From Myxococcales bacterium (GTDB lineage Bacteria; Myxococcota_A; UBA9042): DNA of 64,000 nucleotides. Numbering within the stretch: the stretch's first letter is position 1; each line of letters begins with the position of its first letter. The DNA lies in contig JBBISH010000014.1 in NCBI GenBank assembly GCA_037441385.1, positions 410 through 64,409 of the forward strand, written 5' to 3'. The translations under genes and the position numbers were made by a program. Positions 13,636 through 64,000 of this stretch are shown piece after piece. A model generated the notes under the pieces. That model searched no databases. It saw nothing but the letters and a program-made list of their open reading frames with translations, and had not been told where the DNA came from.

Positions 13636-13910
13636 GTGCGGTTGCGAGCTACCAACCGACCGGAGAGTACGGCCGCGAGGCCCCCGCAACACGTGCCCAG
13701 CCAGGCGATCTGGCCGCAGCTTGCCACAGCCGCGCAGCGCTGATCGCCAGGCTTCCACAGTGATTTTGGACGGCGGTTTGTCGGCCGCGCCAAGTCGCCG
13801 GGCAGTCCATGGCGCCCGGCGCGCGGCACCCTGCCTCTGGACTCTGCGCGCCAGTAGCAGCACCATGGCTCCAAGCAGGTCGTGGCGACGGCGCGGCCGT
13901 AGGAGGCACG

Positions 13911-16127
13911 ATGGTTTCGCTTGGGTCGGCTCGCTCCAAAGTTGCGATATTGGCAGGATCTTTGGCGGCGTTGGTGTTGGGTGCACCCGCACAGGCCGCG
14001 GTCCCCGCCACAGTGAACCTGGAAGGCGTGGTCACCTCGGCCGGGGGCGGCGCGGCGGCCGACGGCACCTACGGGGCCGCGTTCGCGTTGTACAGCCAAG
14101 CGACGGGCGGCACCGCCGTTTGGAGCGAGGCGAACGTACAGATCACGGTGAAGTCGGGCGCGTTCAGCTACGTGCTGGGCAGCAAGACGCCGCTGGCCCC
14201 CGCCACCTTGGCCACCGCGGGCGATCTGTACCTGGGCATGGCCGTGGGCACCGACCCCGAGCTGCCGCGCATGCCGCTGCGTTCGGTAGCCTATGCGCTG
14301 GTGGCCGACACGGCCCTAAAGGCCACCGGTCTGGAGTGCTCGGGCTGCATCAAGGCGGCGGCGCTGGACAGCGCGGTGCTGCAACCCTATGCCAAGTCGT
14401 CGGATCTTGGGGTCTACGCCAAGGCGGCCGACCTCGGCGCCTATGCCAAATCCACGGATCTGAGCGCCTATGCCAAGTCGACGGACCTGGCCGCCTACGC
14501 CAAGGCGGCGGATTTGGTGGGGCTGGCCAGCAAGACCGACCTGGCCGACTACGCCAAGGCAGCTTCGCTGGCCACGGTCGCGGGCACCGGCAAGTACACA
14601 GACTTGGTGGGTCTGCCCGCCCTGGCCAAGCTCGGCACCAGCTGCGGCACCGGCCTGGTGGTCAAGGGGCTGAAGGCCGACGGCTCGCTGGACTGCGCCA
14701 GCCCGTTCGACGCGGCCGCGGCTGACACCTTGGCCAAGCTGAGCCAGGGCCTGCTCACCAACAATTTCACAGAGGTCGTGCCCAGCGCCGCGCCATTCGA
14801 TGTCAAGGACAACGATCCCACCGGCTCGTCCAACGGCCTGATCAACGTGCCCGACCTGGGCCTGGCCACCAGCCTGACCATCACCGTCAACCTGACCAGC
14901 AAGGACGCGTCGGGCCTGATCGTGCGGCTTTACGACCCCGCCAACACCGAGTACGTCCTCTACGACAAGTCGGCGACGGGCACCACCCTGAAGCTGGTGT
15001 CGCCCAGCCCCAACAAGCCGGTGACGGGCGACCTGACCACTTGGATCGGCAAGAACCCCAAGGGCAACTGGCAGTTGGCAGTGGCCGACACCAAGGCCAA
15101 CGGCGGCGGGATCGACGGCCAGGTCACCAACTGGTCGATCAGCATGGGCGTATGGTCTGACAAGAAGGTGGCGGTGAACGGCAACTTGGTGCTGACGGCG
15201 AACACGCAAGTCTGCAATACCTGGCAGAAAGGCGCGATGCGCTGGAACGCCGGCGTGGGCCGGCCCGAATTCTGCGACGGCACCGTGTGGAACGTGTTCG
15301 CACCCGCGCCGCTGGGCTCGCCCACCCGCCCGGCCGCCAGCTGCAAGGCCATTTTGGACGGCGGCGACAGCCGCGGCGACGGCAAGTACTGGGTGCAACC
15401 GGACGCCGCGGCACCGTCGTTCGAGACGTATTGCGACATGACCACCGACGGCGGCGGCTGGACCATGGTCATGAGTCTGGTCCAAGGCGAATACAAGCTG
15501 GGCGGCGACGACTGGAACCAGAAGTGGCAGCAAAGCGGCTACAACCGCTGGGCCGACAAGTCGACCTTTGGCGACCTGGACAACGCCAGCCGCTACAGCA
15601 TCGGCGACTACAAGAACGCGGCCTACGCCAGCCTGAAGGGCAGCGACATGCTCTTCTACCACGTGCCCGACGGGACCGGCATCGACCAATGGCGAGCCAG
15701 CTCGGTCTACACCTACCACACGAACACGGGATTCCTCACCAGCAAGGGCCCGACTGTTCAAGGGATCTTTGCCACCAGCTGCCCGCTGAACAACGGCGGC
15801 GGCAACCACCAGTGCTTGGTGGTCCCCATTGTCTACGACGTGGGCAACGCGACCAACTACGGCAACGAGCAATGCCCCAACAACCGCGGCGAAAGCGAGC
15901 GCGGCTACGTGACCTTTGGCGCCTGGAACGGCGAGAGCTACGCCTTTGCCTTCTGCCCCGTCAAGCAAAACGGCGCCAACTGCGAGCACAGTTGCGTGGG
16001 CGGCAACGGCACCACCGGCGGCAACGGCGCGGGCGGTTGGGGCAACATGCGCGAGTGGTACTACGACGGCAACTGGTGCATGTCGACCAAGATGCGCACG
16101 GCTGCCCTCATGATGCTGGTTCGGTAG
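13911..16127 (+). CDS. Modular secreted tail-fibre-like protein: conserved N-terminal domain, 9-aa YAKxxDLxx repeat stalk, proprotein-convertase P-domain-like module, C-terminal fibrinogen-related domain (FReD)
   Basis: There is a strong Shine-Dalgarno sequence (AGGAGG) before the ATG, and a signal peptide MVSLGSARSKVAILAGSLAALVLGAPAQA. The P-domain pattern is VNLTSKDASGLIVRLYDPANTEYVL...GNWQLAVADTKANGGGIDGQVTNWSI. The FReD hallmark SCKAIL...GKYWVQPD...FETYCDMTTDGGGWTMV is present. Confidence 0.7.
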   Translation: MVSLGSARSKVAILAGSLAALVLGAPAQAAVPATVNLEGVVTSAGGGAAADGTYGAAFALYSQATGGTAVWSEANVQITVKSGAFSYVLGSKTPLAPATLATAGDLYLGMAVGTDPELPRMPLRSVAYALVADTALKATGLECSGCIKAAALDSAVLQPYAKSSDLGVYAKAADLGAYAKSTDLSAYAKSTDLAAYAKAADLVGLASKTDLADYAKAASLATVAGTGKYTDLVGLPALAKLGTSCGTGLVVKGLKADGSLDCASPFDAAAADTLAKLSQGLLTNNFTEVVPSAAPFDVKDNDPTGSSNGLINVPDLGLATSLTITVNLTSKDASGLIVRLYDPANTEYVLYDKSATGTTLKLVSPSPNKPVTGDLTTWIGKNPKGNWQLAVADTKANGGGIDGQVTNWSISMGVWSDKKVAVNGNLVLTANTQVCNTWQKGAMRWNAGVGRPEFCDGTVWNVFAPAPLGSPTRPAASCKAILDGGDSRGDGKYWVQPDAAAPSFETYCDMTTDGGGWTMVMSLVQGEYKLGGDDWNQKWQQSGYNRWADKSTFGDLDNASRYSIGDYKNAAYASLKGSDMLFYHVPDGTGIDQWRASSVYTYHTNTGFLTSKGPTVQGIFATSCPLNNGGGNHQCLVVPIVYDVGNATNYGNEQCPNNRGESERGYVTFGAWNGESYAFAFCPVKQNGANCEHSCVGGNGTTGGNGAGGWGNMREWYYDGNWCMSTKMRTAALMMLVR
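14388..14595 (+). repeat. 27-bp coding tandem repeats (5 YAK(S/A)xDLxx units plus degenerate units)
   Basis: The encoded stretch is YAKSSDLGV YAKAADLGA YAKSTDLSA YAKSTDLAA YAKAADLVG LASKTDLAD YAKAASLAT. Confidence 0.7.
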
Positions 16128-33782: not shown

Positions 33783-33810
33783 TGACATAACACAAGGTTG
33801 ACGCTTGTCG
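33783..33810 (+). promoter_or_regulatory. Instance 2 (degenerate) of the 23-bp motif: TGACAtaACACAAGGtTGaCgCT-TGTCG, in a very AT-rich patch (TAATATATTC) ending 24 nt before the CHAT-gene ATG
   Basis: The spacing CACAAGG-N8-TGTC is shared with the other instances. Confidence 0.4.
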
Positions 33811-33833
33811 CGCGCCGGCGCACGCTTGGCGAC

Positions 33834-36800
33834 ATGAGCGCGCGCCTGGGGCTGATTTGGGCTGGTATCGCGGTCGCGCTGGCCGAGCCAGCCGTCGCGG
33901 CGCCGATGCGCGGCATGGTCACCTGCAATGGCCAGCCGGCCTACCACGCGATGGTGCAAGGTTTTGCCGATGCCGACGCGACGGCGCCGCTGGGCGAGGC
34001 CTTCACGGACGCCAAAGGGCAGTTCAGCCTGACGCTCAAGCCGGGTGCAACCGTGTTGCGTGCGCGCCGCAGTGTGCGCGACGACACCGGTGAGCCGCGC
34101 CGCCTGCAGAGCCTGGCCGTGCCCATCGGCAGCAAGACGCCGGTGGTGGCGCTGGTCGAGCGCGAGGTGCGCAACCGCGACGTGCCGGCGACTCCAGGCG
34201 ATCTGCAATGGTGCACGCGGGCGCGGCCGGTCGCGGAGCAGAGTCAAATCGAAGGCGTGGTGGCCAGGCTCGCTGGCATGGCGAGCGACGGCTGGGCTGG
34301 CGAAGTCGAAGGCAACGCCGCGATGCTGAAGCGCTACGATGCGGAGCCGGTGGGCCACGTCTTGGACGAGCGGCTCAAGGCGGCCGAACTGCGCCACGAT
34401 CTGGACGAACTGACGCGCATGGCGGCGCTCACGACGGTGGTGGGGCTGGTCATCGACGAACCAGAGCTGCAGGCGGCTGGCCAGGCTTGGCAGGCCATCG
34501 TCGACTTGTACCGCGGCAAACAGGCAGACGCGCTGCAGAAATTCTGGACGGTGCTGGTGCTGCAGCAAAAGGCAGTCGATCGCGAGACCCGGCCGGGCTG
34601 GCGCAAGGGTCGGCTGGCAACCTTGGCCCTGTTCTACGAATTCGCCGGGAACCTCGCGGGCGCAATCCACGATGGGGCCACGGTGGGGCTCTTCGGCGAG
34701 GCCGCCAAGTTCTACGAAGAGGTGGATCAGCCGCGGGACGCCGCGAAATTGCACCAACAATTGGGCTTCACTGCCAGCTTGGCGGGGGACGCGGCCAAAG
34801 CGGTCCAGTCCTACGCCGCGGCGCTGCGGGTCCTGGGCGACCTGCCCGAGCCTCTTCTGCGGGCGCGAATCCAAGGCCGCTGGGCGCAATTGGCAAAAGG
34901 CGACGAGCAGTTGCGCTTGCTGCGCGCGGCCGAGATCGAGCTGGCCAAGGCCCGACCGGGGCTGGAGTCGGCGGGAATTCAAATCGACCTGGGCAAAGCG
35001 TGGAGCGGGCGCGACGACTACCAAACGGCGCTGGTCTTGCTCGACGCAGCTGTCAAGACTTTAGACGGGCTGCCGGCAAGTCCGCTGCGGCGCGTGCAGC
35101 AGTGGTCGGCGCTGGGCGCCAGCGGCCGCGGCTACGTGCATTTCAACTTGCGGCATTTGCCCCAAGCGGCGGCGGATTTGCGGCGGGCCATCCCGTTGCA
35201 GCCCGACTCGCTGCCGCCCCAGGATTGCGCCGCCGAGCAGCAGATGTTGGGCTACGTGCTCGCCGAGCAGGGCCAGCAGCCTGATGCGCGCGCCGCCTTT
35301 GAACTGGGCATCACGCTGGCGCAAAAGGGGACCGCCGAGCGCGATCGCGACCGCGAGCTGCTCTTGCGCGAACAGGTGGCCTGGACGTGGCTGGACAGCG
35401 AGCCGCCAGAACCGGCCAAGGCCCTGCAAGTACTGGACGAGGCGATTCAAAAGGCCAACCGCCAGGGACTGACCGCCCGCGAGGGGCGCTTGTGCGAGAC
35501 GGCCGCCCACGCCGCCAGCCCCGAGGCAACCGCGCCCGCCGCGCAGCGCAAGCGCACGCTGACCTACCTGGAGCGCGCCGAGTCCTGCTACGACCAGACC
35601 AAGGACGCCGAGGGGTTGGCGCGGGTGCGCCGCCACTTGGCACAAGAGCGCCGCCTGATGGCCTTTGCCGAGCAGCAGAGCGGCAGGCGCGCCGATGCCG
35701 AGACCTCGCTGCGTGCGGCCCTGGCTGAGTTCGAGCGCAGCGGTGCCCGCGCGGATGCACAAGAAGCGGCGGACCAACTGGCGCTTTTGCTCTACGAACA
35801 GCGGCGGTGGCTGGAGGCGGCCGCCCTGTGGCAAAAGCACGCGGACTGGCTGGCGACCCCGGAGGCCGAGCAAGCGGCAGCCGATACCGTGGCGAACCTG
35901 CCGCGGCCATCGGCCGAGACCAAGCGCAACCTGACCCCCGGTGCCCGCCGCGCAGTGACGCTGAGCCTGCTGGCCAGTTGCTACACGGCGGCCGGCGAAG
36001 CCGACCAAGCGCTGGCCGTACGCCAGCAAGAGGCCGGGCTACGCAGCCAACAGGGTGACGTGCCCGGCGCGAGCGGTGCTTGGCAGCAGCTGGCGCTGGA
36101 TGCGGCCGTGGCGGGTCGTCGGCCGCTGTTCGACAAGGCGCTGCGTTTCCTGGTGGATCACGCCAGCGACGCCTCGAGCAAAGCGATGGTGGCGGCGCTC
36201 CGCATCCTGCCCGACGTTCTGGGCAGCGACCTGGAGGCAGCGCGCCGGGCCAAGGACGAACTGGCCAACGAACTGGCGGCCTTGTCGGTGGGCGCGGCGG
36301 ATCTGCCCGAGCGCCAAGGTCTGGTGCAAGGTTGGGCCATGCTGGGTTCGCTGCAGGCGCGCCTGGGCGAGCCGGGGCCGGGGCTGGCGTCGCTGCAGAA
36401 GGCGGCCGACTGGTCCGACGCGGCCGGCAAGGCGGCCATGCTCAGCAAGATCGGCCACCTGTGTCGCATGCTGGGGCGCTTGCAGGAAGCCCTGGACGCC
36501 CAGCAAAAGGTGCTGGAGCTGGCCGACCAAGCCGCGATGTATGTCAAGCCTTCGTACTTGCTGACCACGCTGGCCGACGTGTTCGAGGTGTACCAGGCCC
36601 TCGGCAACCGCGACGGTGCCCAGACCGTGCTCAGGCGCGCCCTAGCGGTGGCGCAAGAGGTCGAGGCGCAACCGCGCCAGCAGGCCGACGATCGGAAGAT
36701 TCTTGCCGACTTCCAGGCGATGCTCGCGCTGCGGTCAGTCGTGGCTGGTCACCCCGAGCAGGGGCTGGAGCTGGCCGACCGCGCGCTCGCCGTGTACCCG

Positions 36801-38825
36801 CGGCAGTTCCACGACGAAAACACGGCGACCGCGGCGATGGCGCGAGCGTTGGCCCGCAACCTGGCTTTCTTGAAGGCGTCGACCGCCGCGCTGCGCCAAG
36901 CTACGGCCAACCCGAAGTCGCCTGAATTCGCCAAGGTCGTGGCCGACGTGGAGCGCGGGCAGCGCGAGCACGCCGCGGAATTGCAGTCGGCCATGGAGGC
37001 GGCGCTGGCAGAGCTCGCGGTCACTCCTCTGGCCTTGGGTGCGAGCGCCCTGCAGGGCGTAGCGGGCAGCGACAAGGCCAAGCACAGCGAGGTGCAAAAG
37101 ATTCTTGATCTCGCCCACCAGCGGGCCCTGGCCGGCGGCCGGGTCAGCGACCTGTCGACCCTGTCGTGGCTCGCTGGGCGCAGCGCGGAGGCCATCGGCG
37201 ACCGCCAGGGCGCCATCGTCGCCTACCGGCGCGCCATCGAAGAAGAAGAAGTGGTGCGGACTTCGTTGGCGTCCGACATCCACAAGGCCGCGCTGGGCGA
37301 GAGCCGTGACCAGGTCTACGCCAGCTTGGAGCGCCTGTACGCCCAAGAGGGCCAGGCAGCGGAGGCGCTGGAGGTGAGCGAGCAGCGGCGGGCACGGGCC
37401 CTGCTCGACGTGTTGGCGACCGGACAATTGCGGGGCAAATTGCGCAACAACGCGCCGTCGCGCGAGCTGCAGCAATTGGCCGAGCGGATGCAGGCGCTGG
37501 CGGCCCAGGACCAAGCCTTGGATCTGCAGCTGGGCAGCGGCCCGGTCGCGCGGCTGGACGCCGCCTCGGGCAAGCGCCAGTTGGTCGATACGGCCCGGCC
37601 GCAGCTGCGTGTGCGCGTGGCGGGGCGCGAGGCGGCCGCCGAGGCCCTGTGGCGGCAACTGGCCGAAGCGCGCCGACGCGCCGCGGGTTCATCGGCCGAG
37701 CTGACCTCGCTGGTGACGGCGCCCGCGGTCCAGGTCGACGAACTGCGCAGCATGGCCCGGCAGCGCGGCGCGCATCTGCTCGAGTGGTCCGTGCACGACG
37801 ACACGCTGTGGATCTACGTGGTCAGCCCGGCTGGTCGGGTCGACGGGCGACAAGTCTCGGTCACTGCAAAGGATCTTGAGACCAAGGTGCGGGCGCTCCG
37901 CGGTGCACTGGGCGCAGGCGTGGATCGCGACCTGGGGCGCGGCGGCGAGGCCTTGGGGGCTCCTGAGCCGTCTGGCGGCGACGCGACGGCACTGCTGGCC
38001 GACCTGCACCGCACGCTGATCGCGCCCGTCGCAGACCTGCTCCCCCTGGATGGCAAGACGCCGGTGATCGTGGCGCCCCACCGCTCGCTGCTGCTGCTGC
38101 CGCTGGTCGCGTTGACCGACGCCAAGGGCCAGCCCTGGGGTGCCAGCACGTCGCTAGCGGTGGTGCCGTCGCTGGGTGTGTTGCGCTACACGCAGGCCAA
38201 GCACACCGGGGCGGCCAAGGGCGGCGCGCTGGTCGTTGGCAACCCGCAAATGCCCGTGTGGCAAGGCCAGCCCCTGCCGCCCCTGGCGGGCGCAGAGCGC
38301 GAAGCGGCCGAGGTGGCGCGCACACTGGCTGGCCCAGGAATCGAGTTGCTGACTGGCGCCAAGGCGACCGAGACCAAGGTGCGCAAGTCCATGCAGGGCA
38401 AGCGCTTCCTGCACCTGGCCACCCACGGTGTGGCGCGCGATGACCAGCCGGGCGAGAGCTTTGTGGCCCTGGCCAAAGACGCTGGCGCCGACGGGCTCTT
38501 GACGGTGGGCGAAGTGCTGGATCTGCAATTGCAGGCCGACTTGGTCGTGCTGTCGGCCTGCCAGACCGGGCTGGGTAAAGTGAGTGGCGACGGCGTATTG
38601 GGCCTGGGGCGCGCCTTCCTCTACGCCGGCACGCCGCGCGTGGTCGTGAGCCTGTGGTCCGTGCCCGACGAGCCCACCGCGCTGCTGATGGCCACCTTCT
38701 ACGCCGGGCTCCGTGCCGGTCAGGCCCCGGCCGATGCCCTGCGCGCCGCCCAGTCCACCACGCGCGCCAAGTTCCCAGACCCGCGCGCCTGGGCCGCCTT
38801 CGCGATGGTCGGCGAGCCCCGCTGA
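33834..38825 (+). CDS. Secreted carboxypeptidase-regulatory-like domain + TPR repeats + C-terminal CHAT (caspase-like) protease domain protein
   Basis: The signal is MSARLGLIWAGIAVALAEPAVAA. A CarbopepD_reg-like segment reads GMVTCNGQPA...FSLTLKPG. The long TPR region is followed by the CHAT His/Cys dyad HLATHG...LSACQTG. Confidence 0.75.
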   Translation: MSARLGLIWAGIAVALAEPAVAAPMRGMVTCNGQPAYHAMVQGFADADATAPLGEAFTDAKGQFSLTLKPGATVLRARRSVRDDTGEPRRLQSLAVPIGSKTPVVALVEREVRNRDVPATPGDLQWCTRARPVAEQSQIEGVVARLAGMASDGWAGEVEGNAAMLKRYDAEPVGHVLDERLKAAELRHDLDELTRMAALTTVVGLVIDEPELQAAGQAWQAIVDLYRGKQADALQKFWTVLVLQQKAVDRETRPGWRKGRLATLALFYEFAGNLAGAIHDGATVGLFGEAAKFYEEVDQPRDAAKLHQQLGFTASLAGDAAKAVQSYAAALRVLGDLPEPLLRARIQGRWAQLAKGDEQLRLLRAAEIELAKARPGLESAGIQIDLGKAWSGRDDYQTALVLLDAAVKTLDGLPASPLRRVQQWSALGASGRGYVHFNLRHLPQAAADLRRAIPLQPDSLPPQDCAAEQQMLGYVLAEQGQQPDARAAFELGITLAQKGTAERDRDRELLLREQVAWTWLDSEPPEPAKALQVLDEAIQKANRQGLTAREGRLCETAAHAASPEATAPAAQRKRTLTYLERAESCYDQTKDAEGLARVRRHLAQERRLMAFAEQQSGRRADAETSLRAALAEFERSGARADAQEAADQLALLLYEQRRWLEAAALWQKHADWLATPEAEQAAADTVANLPRPSAETKRNLTPGARRAVTLSLLASCYTAAGEADQALAVRQQEAGLRSQQGDVPGASGAWQQLALDAAVAGRRPLFDKALRFLVDHASDASSKAMVAALRILPDVLGSDLEAARRAKDELANELAALSVGAADLPERQGLVQGWAMLGSLQARLGEPGPGLASLQKAADWSDAAGKAAMLSKIGHLCRMLGRLQEALDAQQKVLELADQAAMYVKPSYLLTTLADVFEVYQALGNRDGAQTVLRRALAVAQEVEAQPRQQADDRKILADFQAMLALRSVVAGHPEQGLELADRALAVYPRQFHDENTATAAMARALARNLAFLKASTAALRQATANPKSPEFAKVVADVERGQREHAAELQSAMEAALAELAVTPLALGASALQGVAGSDKAKHSEVQKILDLAHQRALAGGRVSDLSTLSWLAGRSAEAIGDRQGAIVAYRRAIEEEEVVRTSLASDIHKAALGESRDQVYASLERLYAQEGQAAEALEVSEQRRARALLDVLATGQLRGKLRNNAPSRELQQLAERMQALAAQDQALDLQLGSGPVARLDAASGKRQLVDTARPQLRVRVAGREAAAEALWRQLAEARRRAAGSSAELTSLVTAPAVQVDELRSMARQRGAHLLEWSVHDDTLWIYVVSPAGRVDGRQVSVTAKDLETKVRALRGALGAGVDRDLGRGGEALGAPEPSGGDATALLADLHRTLIAPVADLLPLDGKTPVIVAPHRSLLLLPLVALTDAKGQPWGASTSLAVVPSLGVLRYTQAKHTGAAKGGALVVGNPQMPVWQGQPLPPLAGAEREAAEVARTLAGPGIELLTGAKATETKVRKSMQGKRFLHLATHGVARDDQPGESFVALAKDAGADGLLTVGEVLDLQLQADLVVLSACQTGLGKVSGDGVLGLGRAFLYAGTPRVVVSLWSVPDEPTALLMATFYAGLRAGQAPADALRAAQSTTRAKFPDPRAWAAFAMVGEPR

Positions 38826-38917: not shown

Positions 38918-40768
38918 CTACGGGGCTTCTTCCACCCACAGCGTGGCGTGTGCGGTCTGGCGGCCGTCCGAGGCGTACTGGCCCACGTCTTCCAGGATCA
39001 GGTGGTTCCACCACACCGTGAAGGTGTGCGCTCCGGCCGGGACGTTGGTGGCGATGCACGAGATGGTGTCCGCGCGCACCTCGTCGGTGTTGCCGTAGTA
39101 CTCCGAGCCGCAGCCCCAGGGCGTGGGGATGACCTTGTCGTCCATGCGGACTTCGATGCCGCCCCAACCCCAGCTGCTGTGGGTCTCTAGCGCGCCGGTC
39201 ATGACCTGAATCTTTAGCACCGAGGCGGCCTGCTGCTTGGTCAGGGTCGCCTTCAAGTTGGTGTCCAACTGAGCCCAACCGCCGCCGGCGTTGCCGGTGT
39301 GGGGGCCGGTCACGGTGGCCGTGGCATAGTTGAGCTTCTGCGGGATGGAAACGCCATTTACGGTGCCGTCGACGAGGAGGTCGCCCTTGACCTGCACCTT
39401 CTTGTTCGACAGGGTCTGGATGTTGATCGACCAGTTGAATTTGCCGTCGAACCCGCCCGAGCCGCCGCCGGCAAGCAGGTCCTTGACCGTCACCGACCAC
39501 GCACCGGCGATGTTCTTGCCCACCCAATCCTTGTTGATATCGCCCGAGACGATCGCCATGTCGCTGTTGAAGTTCGCCGTCAGCACCGTGCCGGTCTTGG
39601 AGCCGTCGTACAGCACGTAGGGCGACGGCATGCCGGGACCGTACAGTTCGATGCGCACCTTGGCGACGTTGCTGTTGTTTACCGTCATCGAGATCCAAAC
39701 CTTCTGCGCCAGGCCGATGTCCGGGAAGGACAGGGTGTCGGTCACGCCGGCGGTCAGGCCGTCTTTGATCGCGACATCGGTCGTGCCCGCCTTGCTATCG
39801 ACAAACTGGTTGAAGATCAGGCCATTACTGACCTCGTCGATGCCATCAGCCGGCATATCTTTCTCGCTGAGAATGCCGCACACCAGGCTGCCATCCGCCG
39901 CCAGCCCCTTGACGACCAGCCCGGTGCCGCAGCTTTTGCCCACCTGAGCCAGCACGGGCGCGTCCACCAAGTCGGCGTATTTCCCGGTCGATGCCACCTT
40001 GGCCAACTGCGGCTTGTCGGCCAGATCGTTGTAGCTGCCGGTACCGGCCACCGGCGCCAGCGACGCGGCCTTGACGTAGTCCGACAGGTCACTCTTGGAC
40101 GCCAACCCAACCAAATCCGCGGCTTTCGCATAGGCGGCCAGGTCGGCACTCTTGGCATAGGCGCCCAGGTCCGCCGCCTTGGCATACACACCCAAATCCG
40201 CGGACTTGGCATAGACGCTCAGGTCCGCCGATTTGGCATAGGGGCTCAGGTCTGCGGTCTTGGCATAGGCCGCCAGGTCGGCAGACTTGGCATAGGCCGC
40301 CAGATCCGAAGTCTTGGCAAAGGGTTGCAGCACGCCACCTTCGAGCATCGCCGCGGTGATGCAGCCCGAGCACTCCAGCCCTTCGGCCACCACGGCGCGC
40401 TGCGCGTACAACACCGACGCCAACGGCTGCCGCGGCAGCTCGGGATCCGAACCAATCTGCACGCCGATCCAGGCCTTGCTCAAGCTCAGGCTCGCGGGTA
40501 CGAGTGGAGTCTTCGTGCCCAAGTTCCAAAGGAACAAGCCGCCTTGCACGTCGACGCTGACGGGCCCTTCGCTCCAGACCGCCGAACCACCGGCCTCCGC
40601 CGCATAGATGGCAAAGGTCACGTTGTAGCTGCCGTCCGAGACGGTCCCCCCGGCCTGCGACGTCAACCGGCCCTGGGTGATGGTGGTGGGCGGCACAGCG
40701 GCCTGGGCGGTCGCCGCGCCACACAGGGCGAGCAGACTGAACAGCAAAGTCGATAGGCGCAGATTCAT
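38918..40768 (-). CDS. Paralog of the 13911-16127 modular tail-fibre-like secreted protein: same N-domain, 8 YAKxxDLxx repeats, P-domain-like module, different (non-FReD) beta-rich C-terminal domain
   Basis: The signal is MNLRLSTLLFSLLALCGAATAQA. The N-domain is about 60% identical to the paralog, including the shared LECSGCI motif. The C-terminal ~200 aa are unrelated to FReD. Confidence 0.7.
   Translation of the reverse strand: MNLRLSTLLFSLLALCGAATAQAAVPPTTITQGRLTSQAGGTVSDGSYNVTFAIYAAEAGGSAVWSEGPVSVDVQGGLFLWNLGTKTPLVPASLSLSKAWIGVQIGSDPELPRQPLASVLYAQRAVVAEGLECSGCITAAMLEGGVLQPFAKTSDLAAYAKSADLAAYAKTADLSPYAKSADLSVYAKSADLGVYAKAADLGAYAKSADLAAYAKAADLVGLASKSDLSDYVKAASLAPVAGTGSYNDLADKPQLAKVASTGKYADLVDAPVLAQVGKSCGTGLVVKGLAADGSLVCGILSEKDMPADGIDEVSNGLIFNQFVDSKAGTTDVAIKDGLTAGVTDTLSFPDIGLAQKVWISMTVNNSNVAKVRIELYGPGMPSPYVLYDGSKTGTVLTANFNSDMAIVSGDINKDWVGKNIAGAWSVTVKDLLAGGGSGGFDGKFNWSINIQTLSNKKVQVKGDLLVDGTVNGVSIPQKLNYATATVTGPHTGNAGGGWAQLDTNLKATLTKQQAASVLKIQVMTGALETHSSWGWGGIEVRMDDKVIPTPWGCGSEYYGNTDEVRADTISCIATNVPAGAHTFTVWWNHLILEDVGQYASDGRQTAHATLWVEEAP
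40033..40321 (-). repeat. 27-bp coding tandem repeats (8 YAKxADLxx units plus degenerate units)
   Basis: The encoded stretch runs FAKTSDLAA YAKSADLAA YAKTADLSP YAKSADLSV YAKSADLGV YAKAADLGA YAKSADLAA YAKAADLVG and onward. Confidence 0.7.
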
Positions 40769-40994
40769 GGTGGGCTCCCGGCGGGGACGAAAGGGCACGC
40801 ACATCCAAAGGACGATGCAGGCTGCGGAACGGTTGGACAGACCCGTCGCGGGCCGCCCCGCCGACCCCGCGCCGCACGCAAATAGGGTACGTCTGGCGCC
40901 AGAGGTGGTCAAACCCCATGAAACCACAACATTACGTTTACCTGACAAGTTTGCCACAGCTCTGTAGCTACGCGAGACGCCGCGAGGGCGATGA

Positions 40995-41040
40995 AGCGCA
41001 AAAAACGGCGACGCCGGCAGAGGTTTTGCCCCCTGCCGGC
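40995..41040 (-). terminator. Candidate Rho-independent terminator for the tail-tube gene (minus-strand hairpin GGCGCCGGCAG-N12-CTGCCGGCG, 7-nt spacer, TTTTTT)
   Basis: The inverted repeat spans 41011-41040 on the plus strand and is followed on the minus strand by the A6 run at 41000-41005. Confidence 0.45.
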
Positions 41041-41047
41041 GCCGACT

Positions 41048-41140
41048 CGTACTTTTTGCTGTGCGAGCTCTTTTTGGCTGTGCGAGCTCTTCTTGGCTGT
41101 GCGAGCTCTTCTTGGCTGTGCGAGCTCTTTTTGGCTGTGC
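41048..41140. repeat. 19-bp tandem repeat GGCTGTGCGAGCTCTTYTT x ~4.5 (each unit has a GAGCTC palindrome) in the 3' UTR of the tail-tube gene, ~280-370 bp upstream of the paralog gene
   Basis: Direct reading gives four near-identical units followed by a degenerate unit. Confidence 0.7.
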
Positions 41141-41231
41141 GTGCTTGTCAGCTTGTGGCTGTTGCCTCTTGAGCTACGGCGAGCCTTCGACCCGCGCGTC
41201 GTGCCCCGTCTGGATCACAGCCGCGTCAAGA

Positions 41232-41663
41232 TCAACCGCGCTCCAGCTTCTCAACGGCCAGCTCGAGCTCTTCGACGTTGACGTCGGTGCCCTTGCCGTC
41301 CAGGGTGAAGCCCTTCCACTTGGTCGGCCAGCCCTCGAAGAAGTTGTAGCGCATGATCTCCGAGCCGTCGTCGGCGCAGAGGATGACCGAGCCCGACTTG
41401 CGCTGCACCTTGCCCTCGACGACGGCCTTGCGCCATTCCCAGAGCTCAGTGTTGTTGATGTAGCCGCGCTTGAAGGTGATGTTGCTGTACTTGGTGCGGC
41501 CCGGGCGCTTACGCAGCACCATATCGTCGCCGTCCTGGTACTCGATGATCTCGGTCTCGCTGTCCAGGCCTTCCACGTTGCGGAAAGCACCCTGGGTGAC
41601 GCCTTCGATCTCGATCTTGAAGTTGAAGTTACCGATGTGGTCGAATGCACGACGGTTAGGCAT
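41232..41663 (-). CDS. Phage tail tube protein of the T4 gp19 / eCIS Afp1-Pvc1 type (PF06841-like), stand-alone
   Basis: The sequence FNFKIEIEGV...FRNVEGLDSETEIIEYQDGDD...KRPGRTKYSNITFKRGY...ELWEW matches the conserved phage-tail-region-protein signature. No sheath or baseplate genes lie nearby. Confidence 0.7.
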   Translation of the reverse strand: MPNRRAFDHIGNFNFKIEIEGVTQGAFRNVEGLDSETEIIEYQDGDDMVLRKRPGRTKYSNITFKRGYINNTELWEWRKAVVEGKVQRKSGSVILCADDGSEIMRYNFFEGWPTKWKGFTLDGKGTDVNVEELELAVEKLERG

Positions 41664-42061
41664 GTCACTTCTCCGGCCCCCTTCGAGGGCCTGGGCGGTT
41701 GCGCCAGCTCAGAACGGCTTCTGGTCCGGCATCTTGTGTTTCCACCCTAGTTCGCCGCGCGGCGCGTGCCAAACTCCACAAGACGCTTTGGAAGGTAGCC
41801 CCTCCGCCGGGCCCCCGCAAGTGTCAATTGCGGCAGCCCCGCGAAATCGGCCACAGGGTGGGACATGCAGACCCCGATGAGGTCAAATCCTCCGGGGGTA
41901 CGGGGGTCTACAGGGTCGGTTCGCGCGCGAGGCTGGCCCAATTCACGCCTGATCGGCCGCGATCGCGCCGACGAAGAATCGCGGCCTGGGCCGCATAATC
42001 CGTTGACCTGCTTACGCAAATAAGCGAAGCCGGTGAACGAAGCCGGTGAGCGAATCCGCCT

Positions 42062-60699: not shown

Positions 60700-61047
60700 A
60701 GCGGAGACTGTTGCAAAGGTATGTTCGCAGAATTCTGATGCCAATACATTCAATCGGTTGCACGGCGAAAGCACCCGAATTCGACCCTTATGCAACAACC
60801 TCAAAGCGTTGGGAGGGGCAGACGCCGAAGGCGGCGGGGTGAGGGCCAAGTGCCAAGGATCGCACAGGTTTCCACCGCATTTACGGCACTAGTAGCCATC
60901 CGGTAAGGCAGGCAGCTAGGCAGGTAGGGCCAAGGCGGCGGTCAGACCGCGACGATTTCGCCCCGACGAACGGCTGCCGGCGCTCGCTTGGCGCCCACCA
61001 GAAATCAGGCTAAGGTCCAGCCGTTCCGTCCGTCCACCGGAGGCGCC

Positions 61048-64000
61048 ATGTCCCGCTCCCCGCTTTGGCTCGTGCTTGTGGCCACTTGCATCGCGGTCAC
61101 GGCCACCGCAGAGCCCGCGGAAAACCAGGCGCAGGCAGCCAGGCAGCCCCAAGACCCCCGCCTGGCCGAGGCCGCAGCCCTCATGCAGCAGGCGAGCCAG
61201 CTCATTGCCGGCGGGCGGTATGCCGACGCCAAGATCGCGGCCCAGCAAGCGATCGACCGCATCCAAGCCGCCCTGGGCCGAAATGCCCCGCAACTCGCCG
61301 AACCGATGAGTCTCTTGGGCGACGCGATCCGCATGACCGGCGACGTCGCCAAGGGAGAGGAACTGCAGCGGCAGGCCCTGGCGCTGTACGACAAGGCCGG
61401 CGCGCAAGACACGCCCTACTACGGCAGCGTCCTGTACCGCCTTGCCGACGTGCTCCGGATGCGCGGCAAGTTCGCCGAGGCGCTCAAAGTCCAGGAACAG
61501 CTGGGAGCGCTGTACCAAAGGCTCTACGGCGCCCAGGATTCGGCCGGCCTCGCCGTCTGCCTGAGCGCACAGGCCGAGTTGCAGCGCCTCTTGGGCCACA
61601 CGGACAAGGCCCTGGAGCTTCACAAGCGCGCGATCGCCATGTCCAAGGCGACCCACGGCCCACGCCACGCCTACACTGCCAGCCTGATGCAGGCCGAGGC
61701 GACCACCTACGCGACCCGCGGCGAATACCCCAAAGCGGTCAAGGGCTTCGAGGAGGCCTTGCAGATCCTAGAGGAAGCGCTGGGCCCGGACCACATGTGG
61801 GTCGCGCAAGTGGCGCAGAACCTTGGTCTTGAGCTCGTCCATACCGGCGACCTGAAGCGCGCTGACCTGCTCTTTGAACGCGCCCTGAAGATCGACCAAG
61901 CTACCCTGGGCGCCGAACACCCGTTCGTCGCGGCTGTCCTAGCCAATCAAGGCGAGGTCGCCCTGCTCCGCCACCGCCTGGACCTCGCCGAAAGCAAGCT
62001 CCGCCAAGCGTTCACCATCGCTGAAGCTGCCTATGGCGAGGAGCATCCCGAGGTCATCGCGGTGGCGGAGCACTACGCGCGCATCCTCCGCGAGACGGGG
62101 CGCCACGGCCGGGCCAAGTCGCTGCTGCTGCACACTCTTGCGCTCCACGAGAAGCTGCAAGGCTCCGACCACCCCGACCTTGCCAACTCGCTCATCCCAC
62201 TCGCCGAACTCGCCATGGATCAGGGAGAAATCAGCCTGGGCGAGACCTACGCGGCCCGCGCGCAGCGATTGGTCGAGCAAGCCCACGGCCACCGCCATCC
62301 TTTGCTCGTGCCGGTCCTGGACCTGCTGGCCCGCATCGACACCGCCGTCGACGACCGCGAACAACTCATCGCCCGCCGGCAAGCGGCCCTGGTCATTCAC
62401 CTGGCAAGCAACGGGCCGCACCACCCCAACACCGCCAGCGCGCAGACCAATCTGGCCGACGCACTCCTCCCGTCTGACGCGACCCAAGCGGTGGCGCTCA
62501 TGCAGCAGGCCCTGACCACCACCCGCGATATCTTTGGCGAAGAGCACCTGAACACCGCGACCGCCCGCGGCAACCTGGGAGCGGCGCTGGCCGTTCAAGG
62601 CGACCTGCCCCAAGCCGAACGCGAGCTCAAGGCGGCCCTGGCCCTGGATCAACGCCTGCTGGGTCCCCGCAACGTGCAGGTCGGCGCCGACCTCTACAAC
62701 CTCGCGATGGCCGACGCCAAGCTCGGTCACCTGACCGCGGCAGAGAGCCAACTTCGCACCGCCCTGGCCATGGAGGAAGAAGCCATCGGACGCGACAGTC
62801 CGGGCCTCCTCGCGAGCCTGTGGCGGCTCGCCGACCTCGTGGACGCACGCAAGCAATACGCCGAGGGACTGGTTCTCCGCGCGCGCGCCTCGGCCCTGCG
62901 CGACCGCGGTCTGGCCGAGCTGCTGTGGACCGGCGACGAGCAGCGCAAGGTCAGTCTGCTCACCCACGCCGCAGAGGACACGGCCGCCCTGCTCCGCTAT
63001 GCGGTGATGCTGACTCCGAATGAGCCGCGCGCCAGCGAGTTGGCCCTCCAAGCGGTGCTGCGCAGGCACGGGCGCACGGTCGATGCTCTGGCCAACACCC
63101 TGGCAACGCTGCGGCAACGGCTTGGCAGCGACGACCGGAAAATCTTGGATACCCTGGCCGAAACGCGGTCACGGCTCTCTGCCTATGCCCTCAAAGGGCC
63201 CGGCGACGGCGACGAGAGCGCGTGGCACGCCACGGTGGACGCGCTGAAGGGCGAGATCACCAAGACCGAGATGACCTTGGCACAGCACAGCGACGCCTAC
63301 CGCCGGGGCACGGAGGCCGAGGCGACAGTCGCAGCAGTCCAGGCGGCTCTGGCTGCCGACGCTGCACTTGTTGAATACGCTGTTTGGACACCCACTTCCG
63401 AGGTGGAGCATGGCCGCTGGGAAGAGCAGAAGCTCGCGCCGCGGCTGGCCGCCTGCGTCCTCCGCGCAACCGGCAAGCCGCGCTGGTTTGATCTGGGCGA
63501 ACTCGCGGCCGTGGAGAAGGCCACTGGCAACGCGCGCCGAGCCGTCAACAAGGCCGGAACCGACCCGGCACCGACCCTCAAAGCCCTGTCCGAACAGGTG
63601 CTTGCGCCGCTATGGCCTGCTCTAACCGGCGCCAAGAAGCTCCACATCGCCGGCGACGGTCCGCTGTTGGTGGTGCCCTTCGCGGCGCTGCCAACCCCCG
63701 ACGGGCGCCCACTCCTCGACGCGGTTCAGGTCGGCTACCTTGGCTCGGGCCGCGAGCTGCTGCGCCACGAAGCGCCGCCGGCTCCCCGCCAACCGCCGCT
63801 GGTCATCGCCAACCCCGACTTTGGACCCAAGCCCCCCGGCGGCGACGACGAGTCTACGGACTTGCGTTCTCTCGCCGTGGCTGCCCTGCCCGGCACCGCC
63901 AACGAGGCCCAGATTGTCGCGAAGTTGTACCCCAAGGCCAGCGTCCTCACCGGCAGCAGGGCGCGCGAGTCGGCACTCAAAGCCAGCCACGGTCCGCAGT
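61048..64000 (+). CDS. Secreted TPR-repeat (KLC-like TPR_12) + CHAT domain protein, 3' end outside window
   Basis: The signal is MSRSPLWLVLVATCIAVTATA. More than 15 TPR-like 42-aa repeats follow. The CHAT-domain start KKLHIAGDGPLLVVPFAALP sits just before the window end. Confidence 0.7.
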   Translation, partial: MSRSPLWLVLVATCIAVTATAEPAENQAQAARQPQDPRLAEAAALMQQASQLIAGGRYADAKIAAQQAIDRIQAALGRNAPQLAEPMSLLGDAIRMTGDVAKGEELQRQALALYDKAGAQDTPYYGSVLYRLADVLRMRGKFAEALKVQEQLGALYQRLYGAQDSAGLAVCLSAQAELQRLLGHTDKALELHKRAIAMSKATHGPRHAYTASLMQAEATTYATRGEYPKAVKGFEEALQILEEALGPDHMWVAQVAQNLGLELVHTGDLKRADLLFERALKIDQATLGAEHPFVAAVLANQGEVALLRHRLDLAESKLRQAFTIAEAAYGEEHPEVIAVAEHYARILRETGRHGRAKSLLLHTLALHEKLQGSDHPDLANSLIPLAELAMDQGEISLGETYAARAQRLVEQAHGHRHPLLVPVLDLLARIDTAVDDREQLIARRQAALVIHLASNGPHHPNTASAQTNLADALLPSDATQAVALMQQALTTTRDIFGEEHLNTATARGNLGAALAVQGDLPQAERELKAALALDQRLLGPRNVQVGADLYNLAMADAKLGHLTAAESQLRTALAMEEEAIGRDSPGLLASLWRLADLVDARKQYAEGLVLRARASALRDRGLAELLWTGDEQRKVSLLTHAAEDTAALLRYAVMLTPNEPRASELALQAVLRRHGRTVDALANTLATLRQRLGSDDRKILDTLAETRSRLSAYALKGPGDGDESAWHATVDALKGEITKTEMTLAQHSDAYRRGTEAEATVAAVQAALAADAALVEYAVWTPTSEVEHGRWEEQKLAPRLAACVLRATGKPRWFDLGELAAVEKATGNARRAVNKAGTDPAPTLKALSEQVLAPLWPALTGAKKLHIAGDGPLLVVPFAALPTPDGRPLLDAVQVGYLGSGRELLRHEAPPAPRQPPLVIANPDFGPKPPGGDDESTDLRSLAVAALPGTANEAQIVAKLYPKASVLTGSRARESALKASHGPQ

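Follow-up and report, generated by a model that had tools for sequence, protein, structure and literature searches.

The window, by which we mean the whole 64,000-nt stretch of Myxococcales DNA analysed here, carries a gene for an inner-tube protein of the eCIS type, which stands between a cytochrome c gene and a gene for a secreted fibre-like protein. The tube gene is preceded by a ribosome-binding site with an abutting stem-loop and is followed by a tandem array and a terminator hairpin (Table 1).

Table 1 Features of the tube locus and its neighbour, given as positions of the window.
Feature	Position	Strand	Remarks
Secreted fibre-like mosaic protein gene	38918..40768	(-)	Neighbour, not part of the tube unit
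Promoter-like TTGACC-17-TACCCT	40884-40912	(-)	Ahead of the fibre-like gene; hexamers conserved in locus L008, spacer not
Intrinsic terminator of the tube transcript	41000..41044	(-)	15-bp stem (12 G-C), 6-nt loop, T6
19-bp x 5.0 tandem array	41052..41145	(-)	3' UTR, stop codon to terminator; coding-strand unit ACAGCCAARAAGAGCTCGC
Stand-alone eCIS major inner-tube gene	41232..41663	(-)	143 aa; Afp1/Pvc1/Alg1 class; PF06841, TIGR02241
Shine-Dalgarno GGAGA	41670-41674	(-)	7-11 nt before ATG
7-bp stem-loop GGCCCTC-GAA-GGGGGCC	41675-41691	(-)	5' UTR, abuts Shine-Dalgarno
Rest of the 398-bp upstream intergenic region	41692..42061	(-)	Presumed promoter and leader
13-bp x 2.6 repeat	42025-42058	(-)	Upstream intergenic region, just after the cytochrome c gene

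The tube protein aligned to positions 2-134 of the 134 of PF06841 with 132.2 bits (cut-off 28.2) and covered the full TIGR02241 profile with 114 bits (cut-off 62.4). The PF06841-like tail tube proposed in the initial annotation is thus borne out by the family HMM search, and the peptides quoted there are present in the translation. PF06841 was the sole Pfam match, with no match to the Hcp family (PF05638), and no signal peptide was detected on the protein. Among solved structures, the best match was the AlgoCIS 7adz tube chain (Alg1; 54 chains) at 1.4e-19, followed by Anabaena All3324 (6e-18), Pvc1 (1.4e-13) and Afp1 (5e-10), and Pvc5 was matched weakly, at only 2e-3. For the second PF06841 gene of the related eCIS clusters (hereafter tube2), six-copy chains ranked first (7aeb_Y/Alg5, All3323, Pvc5, Afp5). 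Because the best matches of the unlinked gene are many-copy chains and those of tube2 are six-copy chains, we classify the window gene, on sequence grounds, as the bulk tube subunit (Afp1/Pvc1/Cis1 class) and not as the Afp5/Pvc5 adaptor. The protein fell below the equivalog cut-offs of both CIS5_fam (78 bits vs 260) and CIS1_fam (60 bits vs 220), models that are too narrow for this lineage and neither assign nor exclude the class. By homology to the solved tube chains, it would form stacked hexameric rings inside the sheath.

In the window, this tube gene has no companions. Searches by tblastn with components from relatives' clusters (cap, both sheaths, assembly protein, DUF6760, Afp5-like tube, tape-measure-like protein, tube initiator, spike, gp25 and the baseplate-J N-terminus) detected no other CIS gene in the 64 kb, leaving the tube gene without such neighbours for 41 kb on one side and 22 kb on the other. 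Pfam assigned ~30 window genes to ordinary chromosomal functions, including EF-G, Fpg, MFS transporters, cytochromes c, kinases and CHAT/TPR proteins, and both scans agree with the earlier observation that the tube gene is encoded alone, without sheath or baseplate genes. CHAT/TPR genes also occur near the clusters L005, L039 and L051; we considered a meaningful link with the tube gene and set it aside as probably due to chance, since the window by itself has two such genes. No transposase was found in the annotated flanks of stand-alone copies (the window and L001-L004). A common mobile-element signature around the stand-alone copies was likewise discarded, nucleotide homology between copies in different contexts being confined to the coding sequence and ~30 nt upstream of the ATG.

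Homologues of the tube protein number in the hundreds at 80-94% identity, nearly all of them 143 aa long and from Myxococcota MAGs. A scan of species-representative genomes yielded 80 loci, 72-99% identical to the window tube, whose contexts were typed by tblastn with cluster proteins taken from two loci. The gene lies inside a canonical eCIS cluster in 37 genomes, between the sheath and assembly-protein genes, and alone in 37 other genomes, where flanks of up to 10 kb contain no CIS gene; none of the genomes on the list of 80 loci had both arrangements (counting copies at ≥72% identity). Three of the stand-alone loci (L007, L046 and L050) end at the tube gene, and for these a downstream cluster is possible. 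The canonical cluster starts with a Pvc16_N cap, a short sheath (~385 aa), the tube gene (hereafter tube1), a 123-aa 'tail assembly protein', DUF6760 and a long sheath (~570 aa), and continues with the Afp5-like tube2 (PF06841), a long tape-measure-like ORF, a CIS_tube/LysM initiator, a GPD spike, gp25 and baseplate J. The in-cluster orthologues of the window tube, directly after the short sheath gene, are 72-91% identical to it, and the one complete chromosome in the set (OW818691, 9.3 Mb) has an in-cluster copy only. We propose that the gene in the third position of the cluster represents the ancestral Myxococcota arrangement. All close relatives of the window tube are of the stand-alone type, and in a neighbour-joining tree the stand-alone copies form a derived group that includes all copies 85-99% identical to the window. 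The 42 stand-alone loci fall into ~22 unrelated flanking contexts, and seven stand-alone genomes have two tube copies, one of them as a tandem pair.

Sequence comparison indicates strong purifying selection on the gene, with a dN/dS of 0.01-0.15 for the stand-alone copies. The window tube is 98-99% identical to copies from other species, and its dN/dS is 0.015-0.27 (nearest relatives, 0.015-0.06; more distant relatives, 0.10-0.27). Where one MAG holds two paralogous copies, these are separated by a dS of 0.13-0.35 with a dN near 0, so that both have long been held under constraint. Stand-alone and in-cluster copies are 80-90% identical to one another, which gives no hint of a drift to another function. 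These values bear directly on a suggestion of the initial annotation, namely that the gene is an orphan remnant of a contractile injection system; in such a case an eCIS or prophage would have been lost, its cluster gone and the gene decaying or idle. The empty surroundings, with no CIS gene within 41 kb and 22 kb of the tube gene, would be expected of such a remnant. However, the ORF is intact, evolves at the low dN/dS just given for its nearest relatives and has kept its length of 143 aa in almost all listed homologues; its ribosome-binding site, 5' hairpin and terminator are conserved; and relatives retain the rest of the machine. We therefore regard a remnant as scarcely credible.

The eCIS clusters that co-occur with stand-alone copies provide the strongest clue to what the window gene does, as they lack tube1. 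In MAG JBEARB01, the stand-alone tube gene (L018, contig 166, RIT45_2148; 90% identical to the window) is accompanied by an eCIS cluster on contig 345 (L174, sheath RIT45_4087), which runs from the cap and sheath across a 173-bp hairpin-rich gap to the assembly protein, long sheath and tube2; tube1 was undetected in this cluster even at E = 10. In MAG VGRO01, which has a stand-alone tube 98% identical to the window (L013, MBM4342571.1), the cluster (L090, MBM4342491.1) begins at the assembly protein, and the genes upstream of it are unrelated. The two VGRO01 accessions are 80 numbers apart, and their contigs come from the same metagenome and sample and are of similar length, which makes them neighbours within a single submission. 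Neither the short sheath nor the cap gene was located for VGRO01. Locus L099 has a cap and a sheath and then no assembly protein within 245 bp; it might represent a cap-sheath module of its own, from the lake that also yielded VGRO01, but could not be tied to the VGRO01 MAG.

Both forms of tube1-less cluster recur in other assemblies. In L092, L096, L097 and L172-L181, all from independent assemblies, the assembly protein comes straight after the sheath, whereas in L087-L091 and one 68-kb contig the cluster starts at the assembly protein; this recurrence in independent assemblies rules out local mis-assembly. L176 and L180 contain the cap, two sheaths, tube2, initiator, GPD spike, gp25 and baseplate J. 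One metagenome assembly (ERZ27257200) contains a stand-alone tube gene (P0002, L003) together with a tube1-less cluster (L175). The same-MAG links in JBEARB01 and VGRO01 rest on bins, which can mix contigs and do not amount to proof of one genome, and a look-up by accession yielded no entry for L007, L009 and L014 and no tube-to-cluster link for L008 (MBI5609422.1) and P0256 (MDY0059781.1). Because deletion of Pvc1 abolishes PVC particles, a result that appears in PMC12210884 as a citation, a cluster without tube1 would need a tube supplier in trans.

The initial annotation had reasoned that a complete cluster elsewhere would reduce the window gene to a simple duplicate. Relatives do have an eCIS cluster elsewhere, but it comes without tube1, and since these clusters lack it, the stand-alone gene would be the missing part and not a spare copy. 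A milder form of the duplicate reading is that a complete cluster keeps its own tube1 and the window gene is an added or differently regulated supply. The in-cluster copy on the short contig L023, which nests among the stand-alone copies in the tree, speaks in its favour and suggests that some members of the clade, including the window's genome, may carry both kinds of copy. Several MAGs with two stand-alone copies, one of them with a tandem pair, point the same way, and many contigs break at the tube gene, as they do for repeated genes, so that in-cluster copies could be under-assembled. Nevertheless, an in-cluster copy at ≥72% identity was found in 0 of the 37 stand-alone genomes, and the clusters of two such MAGs and of >10 independent contigs run from sheath or unrelated genes into the assembly protein with no tube1 between. 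We consider such an extra dosage copy distinctly unlikely.

We therefore return to the reading that best accounts for the locus: in our judgement, the window gene quite likely encodes the major tube subunit (Afp1/Pvc1 class) of an eCIS that has been split, and is unlinked to the remaining genes and transcribed apart from them. What was observed here comprises the assignment to the family, the anatomy of the stand-alone unit, purifying selection on it and the tube1-less clusters that share MAGs with stand-alone copies. A tube1-less cluster in the window's own genome is presumed from its relatives, and the incorporation of the product into a particle, like the roles of the hairpin and of separate transcription, is likewise our presumption. 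Under the split arrangement, tube1 would have left the cluster in the window's clade and would persist as one to three stand-alone units, while the main cluster would supply the baseplate, the initiator and the Afp5-like ring that nucleate a tube polymerised from the product of the window gene. The tube1 product would be needed in ~100-fold excess over the single-ring components, and a monocistronic unit with a 5' stem-loop and a strong terminator would give a high and independently adjustable output.

The 5' end of the unit has conserved features of this kind. A hairpin equivalent to the one abutting the Shine-Dalgarno sequence was present 9-18 nt before the ATG in 33/33 copies examined, including the in-cluster copy of L023. 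Hairpin and Shine-Dalgarno sequence both fall within the ~30 nt ahead of the coding sequence over which the copies are still similar. In the alignment of these hairpins, which was anchored on the hairpin itself so that its pairing figures lean toward structure, 89% of stem cells were paired, with 38 double-sided changes, and 0/500 shuffles were as good; slid registers of the same alignment gave 44-60% paired. The inner C-C-Y/G-G-G pairs are invariant, and covariation (GC, CG, AU, UA) is seen in the outer ones. This RBS-proximal stem-loop is probably an mRNA stabiliser. Further upstream, conservation with L008 extends over the entire intergenic region, and that with L014 reaches position -126. 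A scan for a sigma-70 consensus upstream of the tube gene gave no match and the promoter was not located; a sigma-54-like GG-N10-GC spacing picked out by eye in the window was dropped, as it is not conserved in L012 or L014. An Rfam scan of both tube UTRs returned no match.

At the 3' end, the stem-loop of the terminator (41044..41009, minus strand) is followed by CCGTTTTTTG. The hairpin and T6 run described in the initial annotation are thus present; the stem is G+C-rich and 15 bp long, with a predicted dG of ~ -36 kcal/mol and a 3' UTR folding z of -3.8, and the orthologous hairpin is kept in L008. In most stand-alone copies with enough 3' flank, a strong hairpin with a T-run occurs 45-230 nt past the stop codon; these hairpins have dG values of ~ -17 to -45 kcal/mol, mostly -25 or stronger, and unrelated sequences. 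The nearest in-cluster relatives have a terminator-like hairpin between tube1 and the assembly-protein gene. Given this hairpin, the front part of the cluster, from cap to tube1, probably formed a transcription unit of its own even before the split, and a pre-existing unit boundary would make a break of the cluster at that point nearly cost-free.

The 19-bp array is separated from the tube stop codon by ~85 nt of unique sequence. It is the top-scoring non-coding array of the window (TRF period 19, 5.0 copies, 94% matches, score 160), and within the window the unit occurs 4 times at ≤1 mismatch, all at the array site, against 0.02 expected by chance. The array and the GAGCTC palindrome in each unit had been recognised from the start, albeit with a copy number of 4.5 where TRF gives 5.0. 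The syntenic L008, whose intergenic region is 83% identical to that of the window over its full length, has neither array nor unit, with ~28 nt in place of the ~101 nt of the window. As L008 lacks the array and has a conserved terminator hairpin, the array appears from this comparison to have arisen in the window's own lineage. Other stand-alone 3' flanks have arrays of unrelated units and periods (L010, L027, L058, L014 and L017), among them 23 bp x 3.9 in L010, a perfect re-duplication of the last codons and the stop codon, 12 bp x 5.7 in L027 and 7 bp x 13.9 in L058; tandem arrays hardly occur after in-cluster tube copies.

Taken from sequence comparison, the window array is probably a lineage-specific VNTR, a recent slippage product with no conserved role. 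Of the two possibilities raised initially, a VNTR fits its absence from the syntenic L008 locus, and a protein-binding array is made unlikely by the same absence. A functional 3'-UTR element, binding protein or RNA, would be in keeping with five near-perfect copies, each with its GAGCTC palindrome, between stop codon and terminator, and with the recurrence of arrays 3' of stand-alone copies and hardly after in-cluster ones. Yet the array is missing from L008, the units and periods at other copies are unrelated, and there is neither a second site in the window nor an Rfam match, which together make a functional array quite improbable.

The fibre-like gene lies downstream of the tube gene on the same strand, in the order initially described, although the gap from the tube stop codon is 463 bp and not 464 bp. 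Its predicted product is composed of a Sec-type signal peptide, a conserved N-terminal domain, 9-aa [ST]DLxxYAK repeats, a P-domain-like region and a variable head. Both the signal peptide and the orthologue in L008, which begins at the same place and has a signal peptide as well, support the start at 40768. The protein is 45% identical to a paralogue at 13809..16127 with P_proprotein and Fibrinogen_C domains; the heads of the two differ, that of the paralogue being Fibrinogen_C. Its likeness to the Bdellovibrio mosaic adhesive trimer (MAT) is confined to the architecture, namely a signal peptide, a stalk of repeats and a swappable head; it scored 16.5 bits against the Bdello_MAT_N model (NF053851), below the cut-off of 60 (E = 0.0056).

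Adjacency of the tube and fibre-like genes is restricted to the window and L008 (JACRCU01) among the 42 stand-alone loci, that is, to 1 of ~22 contexts, and the series of cytochrome c, tube and fibre-like gene is common only to these two. Members of the fibre-like family lie near three other stand-alone tube loci, 2-8 kb away and on either strand. We rejected a role of the fibre-like gene as an eCIS tail fibre, as its linkage to the tube gene is not conserved and its product has a signal peptide, which does not fit an eCIS particle assembled in the cytoplasm. The co-option of the tube protein with a fibre-like adhesin, as had been suggested, fares no better: the adjacency is limited to the two loci, a terminator separates the genes, and the fibre-like gene has its own promoter-like site and a signal peptide on its product. 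In a broader version, the tube would serve independently of any eCIS, as a tube-only assembly or an Hcp-like carrier, possibly with the secreted fibre-like neighbour. Extreme conservation, multiple dispersed copies and the adjacency in the window and L008 could be read in this way. Against it stand the rarity of that adjacency, the terminator and separate promoter-like site between the genes, the signal peptide found on the fibre-like protein and absent from the tube protein, the 80-90% identity of stand-alone and in-cluster copies, and the tube1-less clusters, which require a tube supplier. We regard an eCIS-independent role as very improbable and, on the basis of these comparisons, treat the adjacency as incidental.

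The split reading can be extended, tentatively and with more doubt than confidence, to the clade as a whole. Its eCIS would consist of common parts at separate loci, with the genes for the bulk polymers (tube1, joined in some lineages by the cap and the short sheath) moved out and multiplied. One pool of tube protein, fed from several differently regulated promoters, might then serve one or more baseplate clusters, so that particle number or length would be set in trans by tube supply, and the 3'-UTR arrays and the RBS-proximal hairpin might act as tuning elements.

These findings matter for the way in which eCIS loci are recognised, since the usual view, like the software used for detection, takes such a locus to be a self-contained operon. 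The uncultured Myxococcota concerned here, a group widespread in fresh water and groundwater, have their most abundant structural gene outside the cluster, often in more than one copy. Cluster-based surveys will count such split systems as incomplete, and lone 'phage tail protein' genes will be mistaken for prophage debris. The arrangement is also a natural system in which to ask how the architecture of transcription units determines the stoichiometry of a contractile machine. It further suggests that, when PVC-like delivery particles are engineered, the supply of tube protein is separable from the remaining operon.

One of the closest described systems is the eCIS of marine Myxococcota (UBA796), which has the same kind of cluster and tube protein (PMC11937823). 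Metatranscriptomes ranked the PF06841 tube gene of those uncultured MAGs first in expression in situ, and the study calls it 'often linked' to a sheath gene of an eCIS cluster (PMC11937823); such top expression fits the need for high output proposed here. That study does not include an analysis of unlinked tube copies or tube1-less clusters (PMC11937823), and our literature search for unlinked eCIS tube genes found no explicit description.

With the Afp1, Pvc1, Alg1 and Cis1 proteins (Serratia Afp, Photorhabdus PVC, Algoriphagus AlgoCIS and Anabaena All3324), the window gene shares its Pfam family and size (~140-150 aa), and in related Myxococcota the tube gene adjoins a sheath gene in a cluster with the Afp/PVC part set. 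The Afp and PVC systems keep the tube gene in the cluster, whereas here and in 37 related genomes it is unlinked, monocistronic and sometimes present in two copies. In this respect, the window gene resembles the orphan hcp genes of T6SS, in which the tube subunit is encoded outside the main cluster, as hcp or hcp-vgrG islands; in both cases the off-cluster tube subunit forms a small unit, often in several copies, whose high expression is presumed for the window gene. Orphan hcp usually coexists with an in-cluster hcp and travels with vgrG and effectors, whereas no cargo or spike gene accompanies the window tube gene. The protein families differ as well (PF06841 in the window), and the machine in question here is of the eCIS type, with a Pvc16 cap and a tape-measure-like gene.

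A small stem-loop lies directly 5' of the Shine–Dalgarno (SD) sequence of the tube gene (see table), and is found in all stand-alone tube copies examined as well as in the in-cluster copy L023 (sites L007-L038 and L050). Its outer pairs show covariation around an invariant CCY/GGG core, and it may act as an mRNA-stabilising or processing element. At the distal end of the intergenic region 5' of the tube gene, a short tandem repeat follows the upstream di-haem cytochrome c gene.

On the 3' side, tandem arrays with mutually unrelated units are recurrent at stand-alone tube genes and rare at in-cluster copies. Stand-alone copies with such an array in the 3' flank are those of L010, L027, L058, L014, and L017; in L010 the repeated unit consists of the last codons of the tube gene plus its stop codon, re-duplicated exactly. 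L058 carries a tandem pair of tube genes that encode identical proteins (dS 0.13). In L021 the intact copy is followed, a few kb further 3', by two tube-like fragments that are degraded and show 60-65% identity. Many contigs were either very short (1.4-2 kb; L023, L041, L072) or broken off at the tube gene (L007, L046, L050, L075, L076, L079), which is the expected assembler behaviour at near-identical repeated genes; tube copy number and linkage may therefore be under-reported by MAGs.

Coordinates of features in the window and in its relatives
Feature	Locus	Position	Strand	Remark
13-bp x 2.6 tandem repeat (CGAAGCCGGTGAA)	window	42025-42058		directly after di-haem cytochrome c stop codon
Small stem-loop	window	41675-41691	-	5' of tube gene SD
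Promoter-like TTGACC-17-TACCCT	window	40884-40912	-	5' of fibre-like gene
Secreted fibre-like mosaic protein 1	window	13809-16127	+	C-terminal head Fibrinogen_C
Secreted fibre-like mosaic protein 2	window	38918-40768	-	different C-terminal head
Repeat stalks of the two fibre-like genes	window	14386-14560; 40111-40324		27-bp period
Large TPR-CHAT proteins	window	33798-38825; 60988-64000	+; +	near tube gene
Large TPR-CHAT protein	L005	4273-7050		near eCIS cluster
Large TPR-CHAT proteins	L039, L051	near 1000-1600		near eCIS clusters
Tandem array	L010	about 1680-1770		23 bp x 3.9
Tandem array	L027	3' flank of tube gene		12 bp x 5.7
Tandem array	L058	between tandem tube copies		7 bp x 13.9
Tandem tube pair	L058	1801-3047		
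Degraded tube-like fragments	L021	13846-14010; 15462-15749		
Assembly-protein-first cluster	L090	10001-20372		
Cap and sheath contig	L099	1549-3688		
Tube1-first cluster	L042	10001-20429		

The fibre-like gene downstream of the tube gene has a paralogue in the window, with which it shares an N-terminal domain, a repeat stalk, and a P-domain-like region, the C-terminal heads being different; fibre-like homologues with COLFI/Fibrinogen_C were present in L001, L002, and L020. Both hexamers of the promoter-like site preceding this gene are kept in L008, the syntenic relative, and the spacer is not. The site was absent from the consensus-scan output because of its weak -10 element. Large TPR-CHAT genes, located near the tube gene and near the eCIS clusters of three relatives, are probably there by chance in a TPR-CHAT-rich genome, given that the window alone contains two.

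One eCIS cluster form, seen in L087-L091, has the gene for the 123-aa assembly protein in first place, and cap, short sheath, and tube1 are all gone from the cluster; a Peptidase_M74/LysM gene lies immediately 5' of this cluster form in L090 and L091. In L042 tube1 is itself the first gene of the cluster, and neither cap nor short sheath precedes it; assembly protein, DUF6760, long sheath, and the further cluster genes come next. This may represent an intermediate arrangement. On some metagenome contigs no assembly-protein gene follows the front genes: L099 encodes cap and sheath, and L105, L112, and L115 encode a divergent tube in addition to these two. This pattern suggests repeated separation of the front and baseplate modules in this eCIS type.
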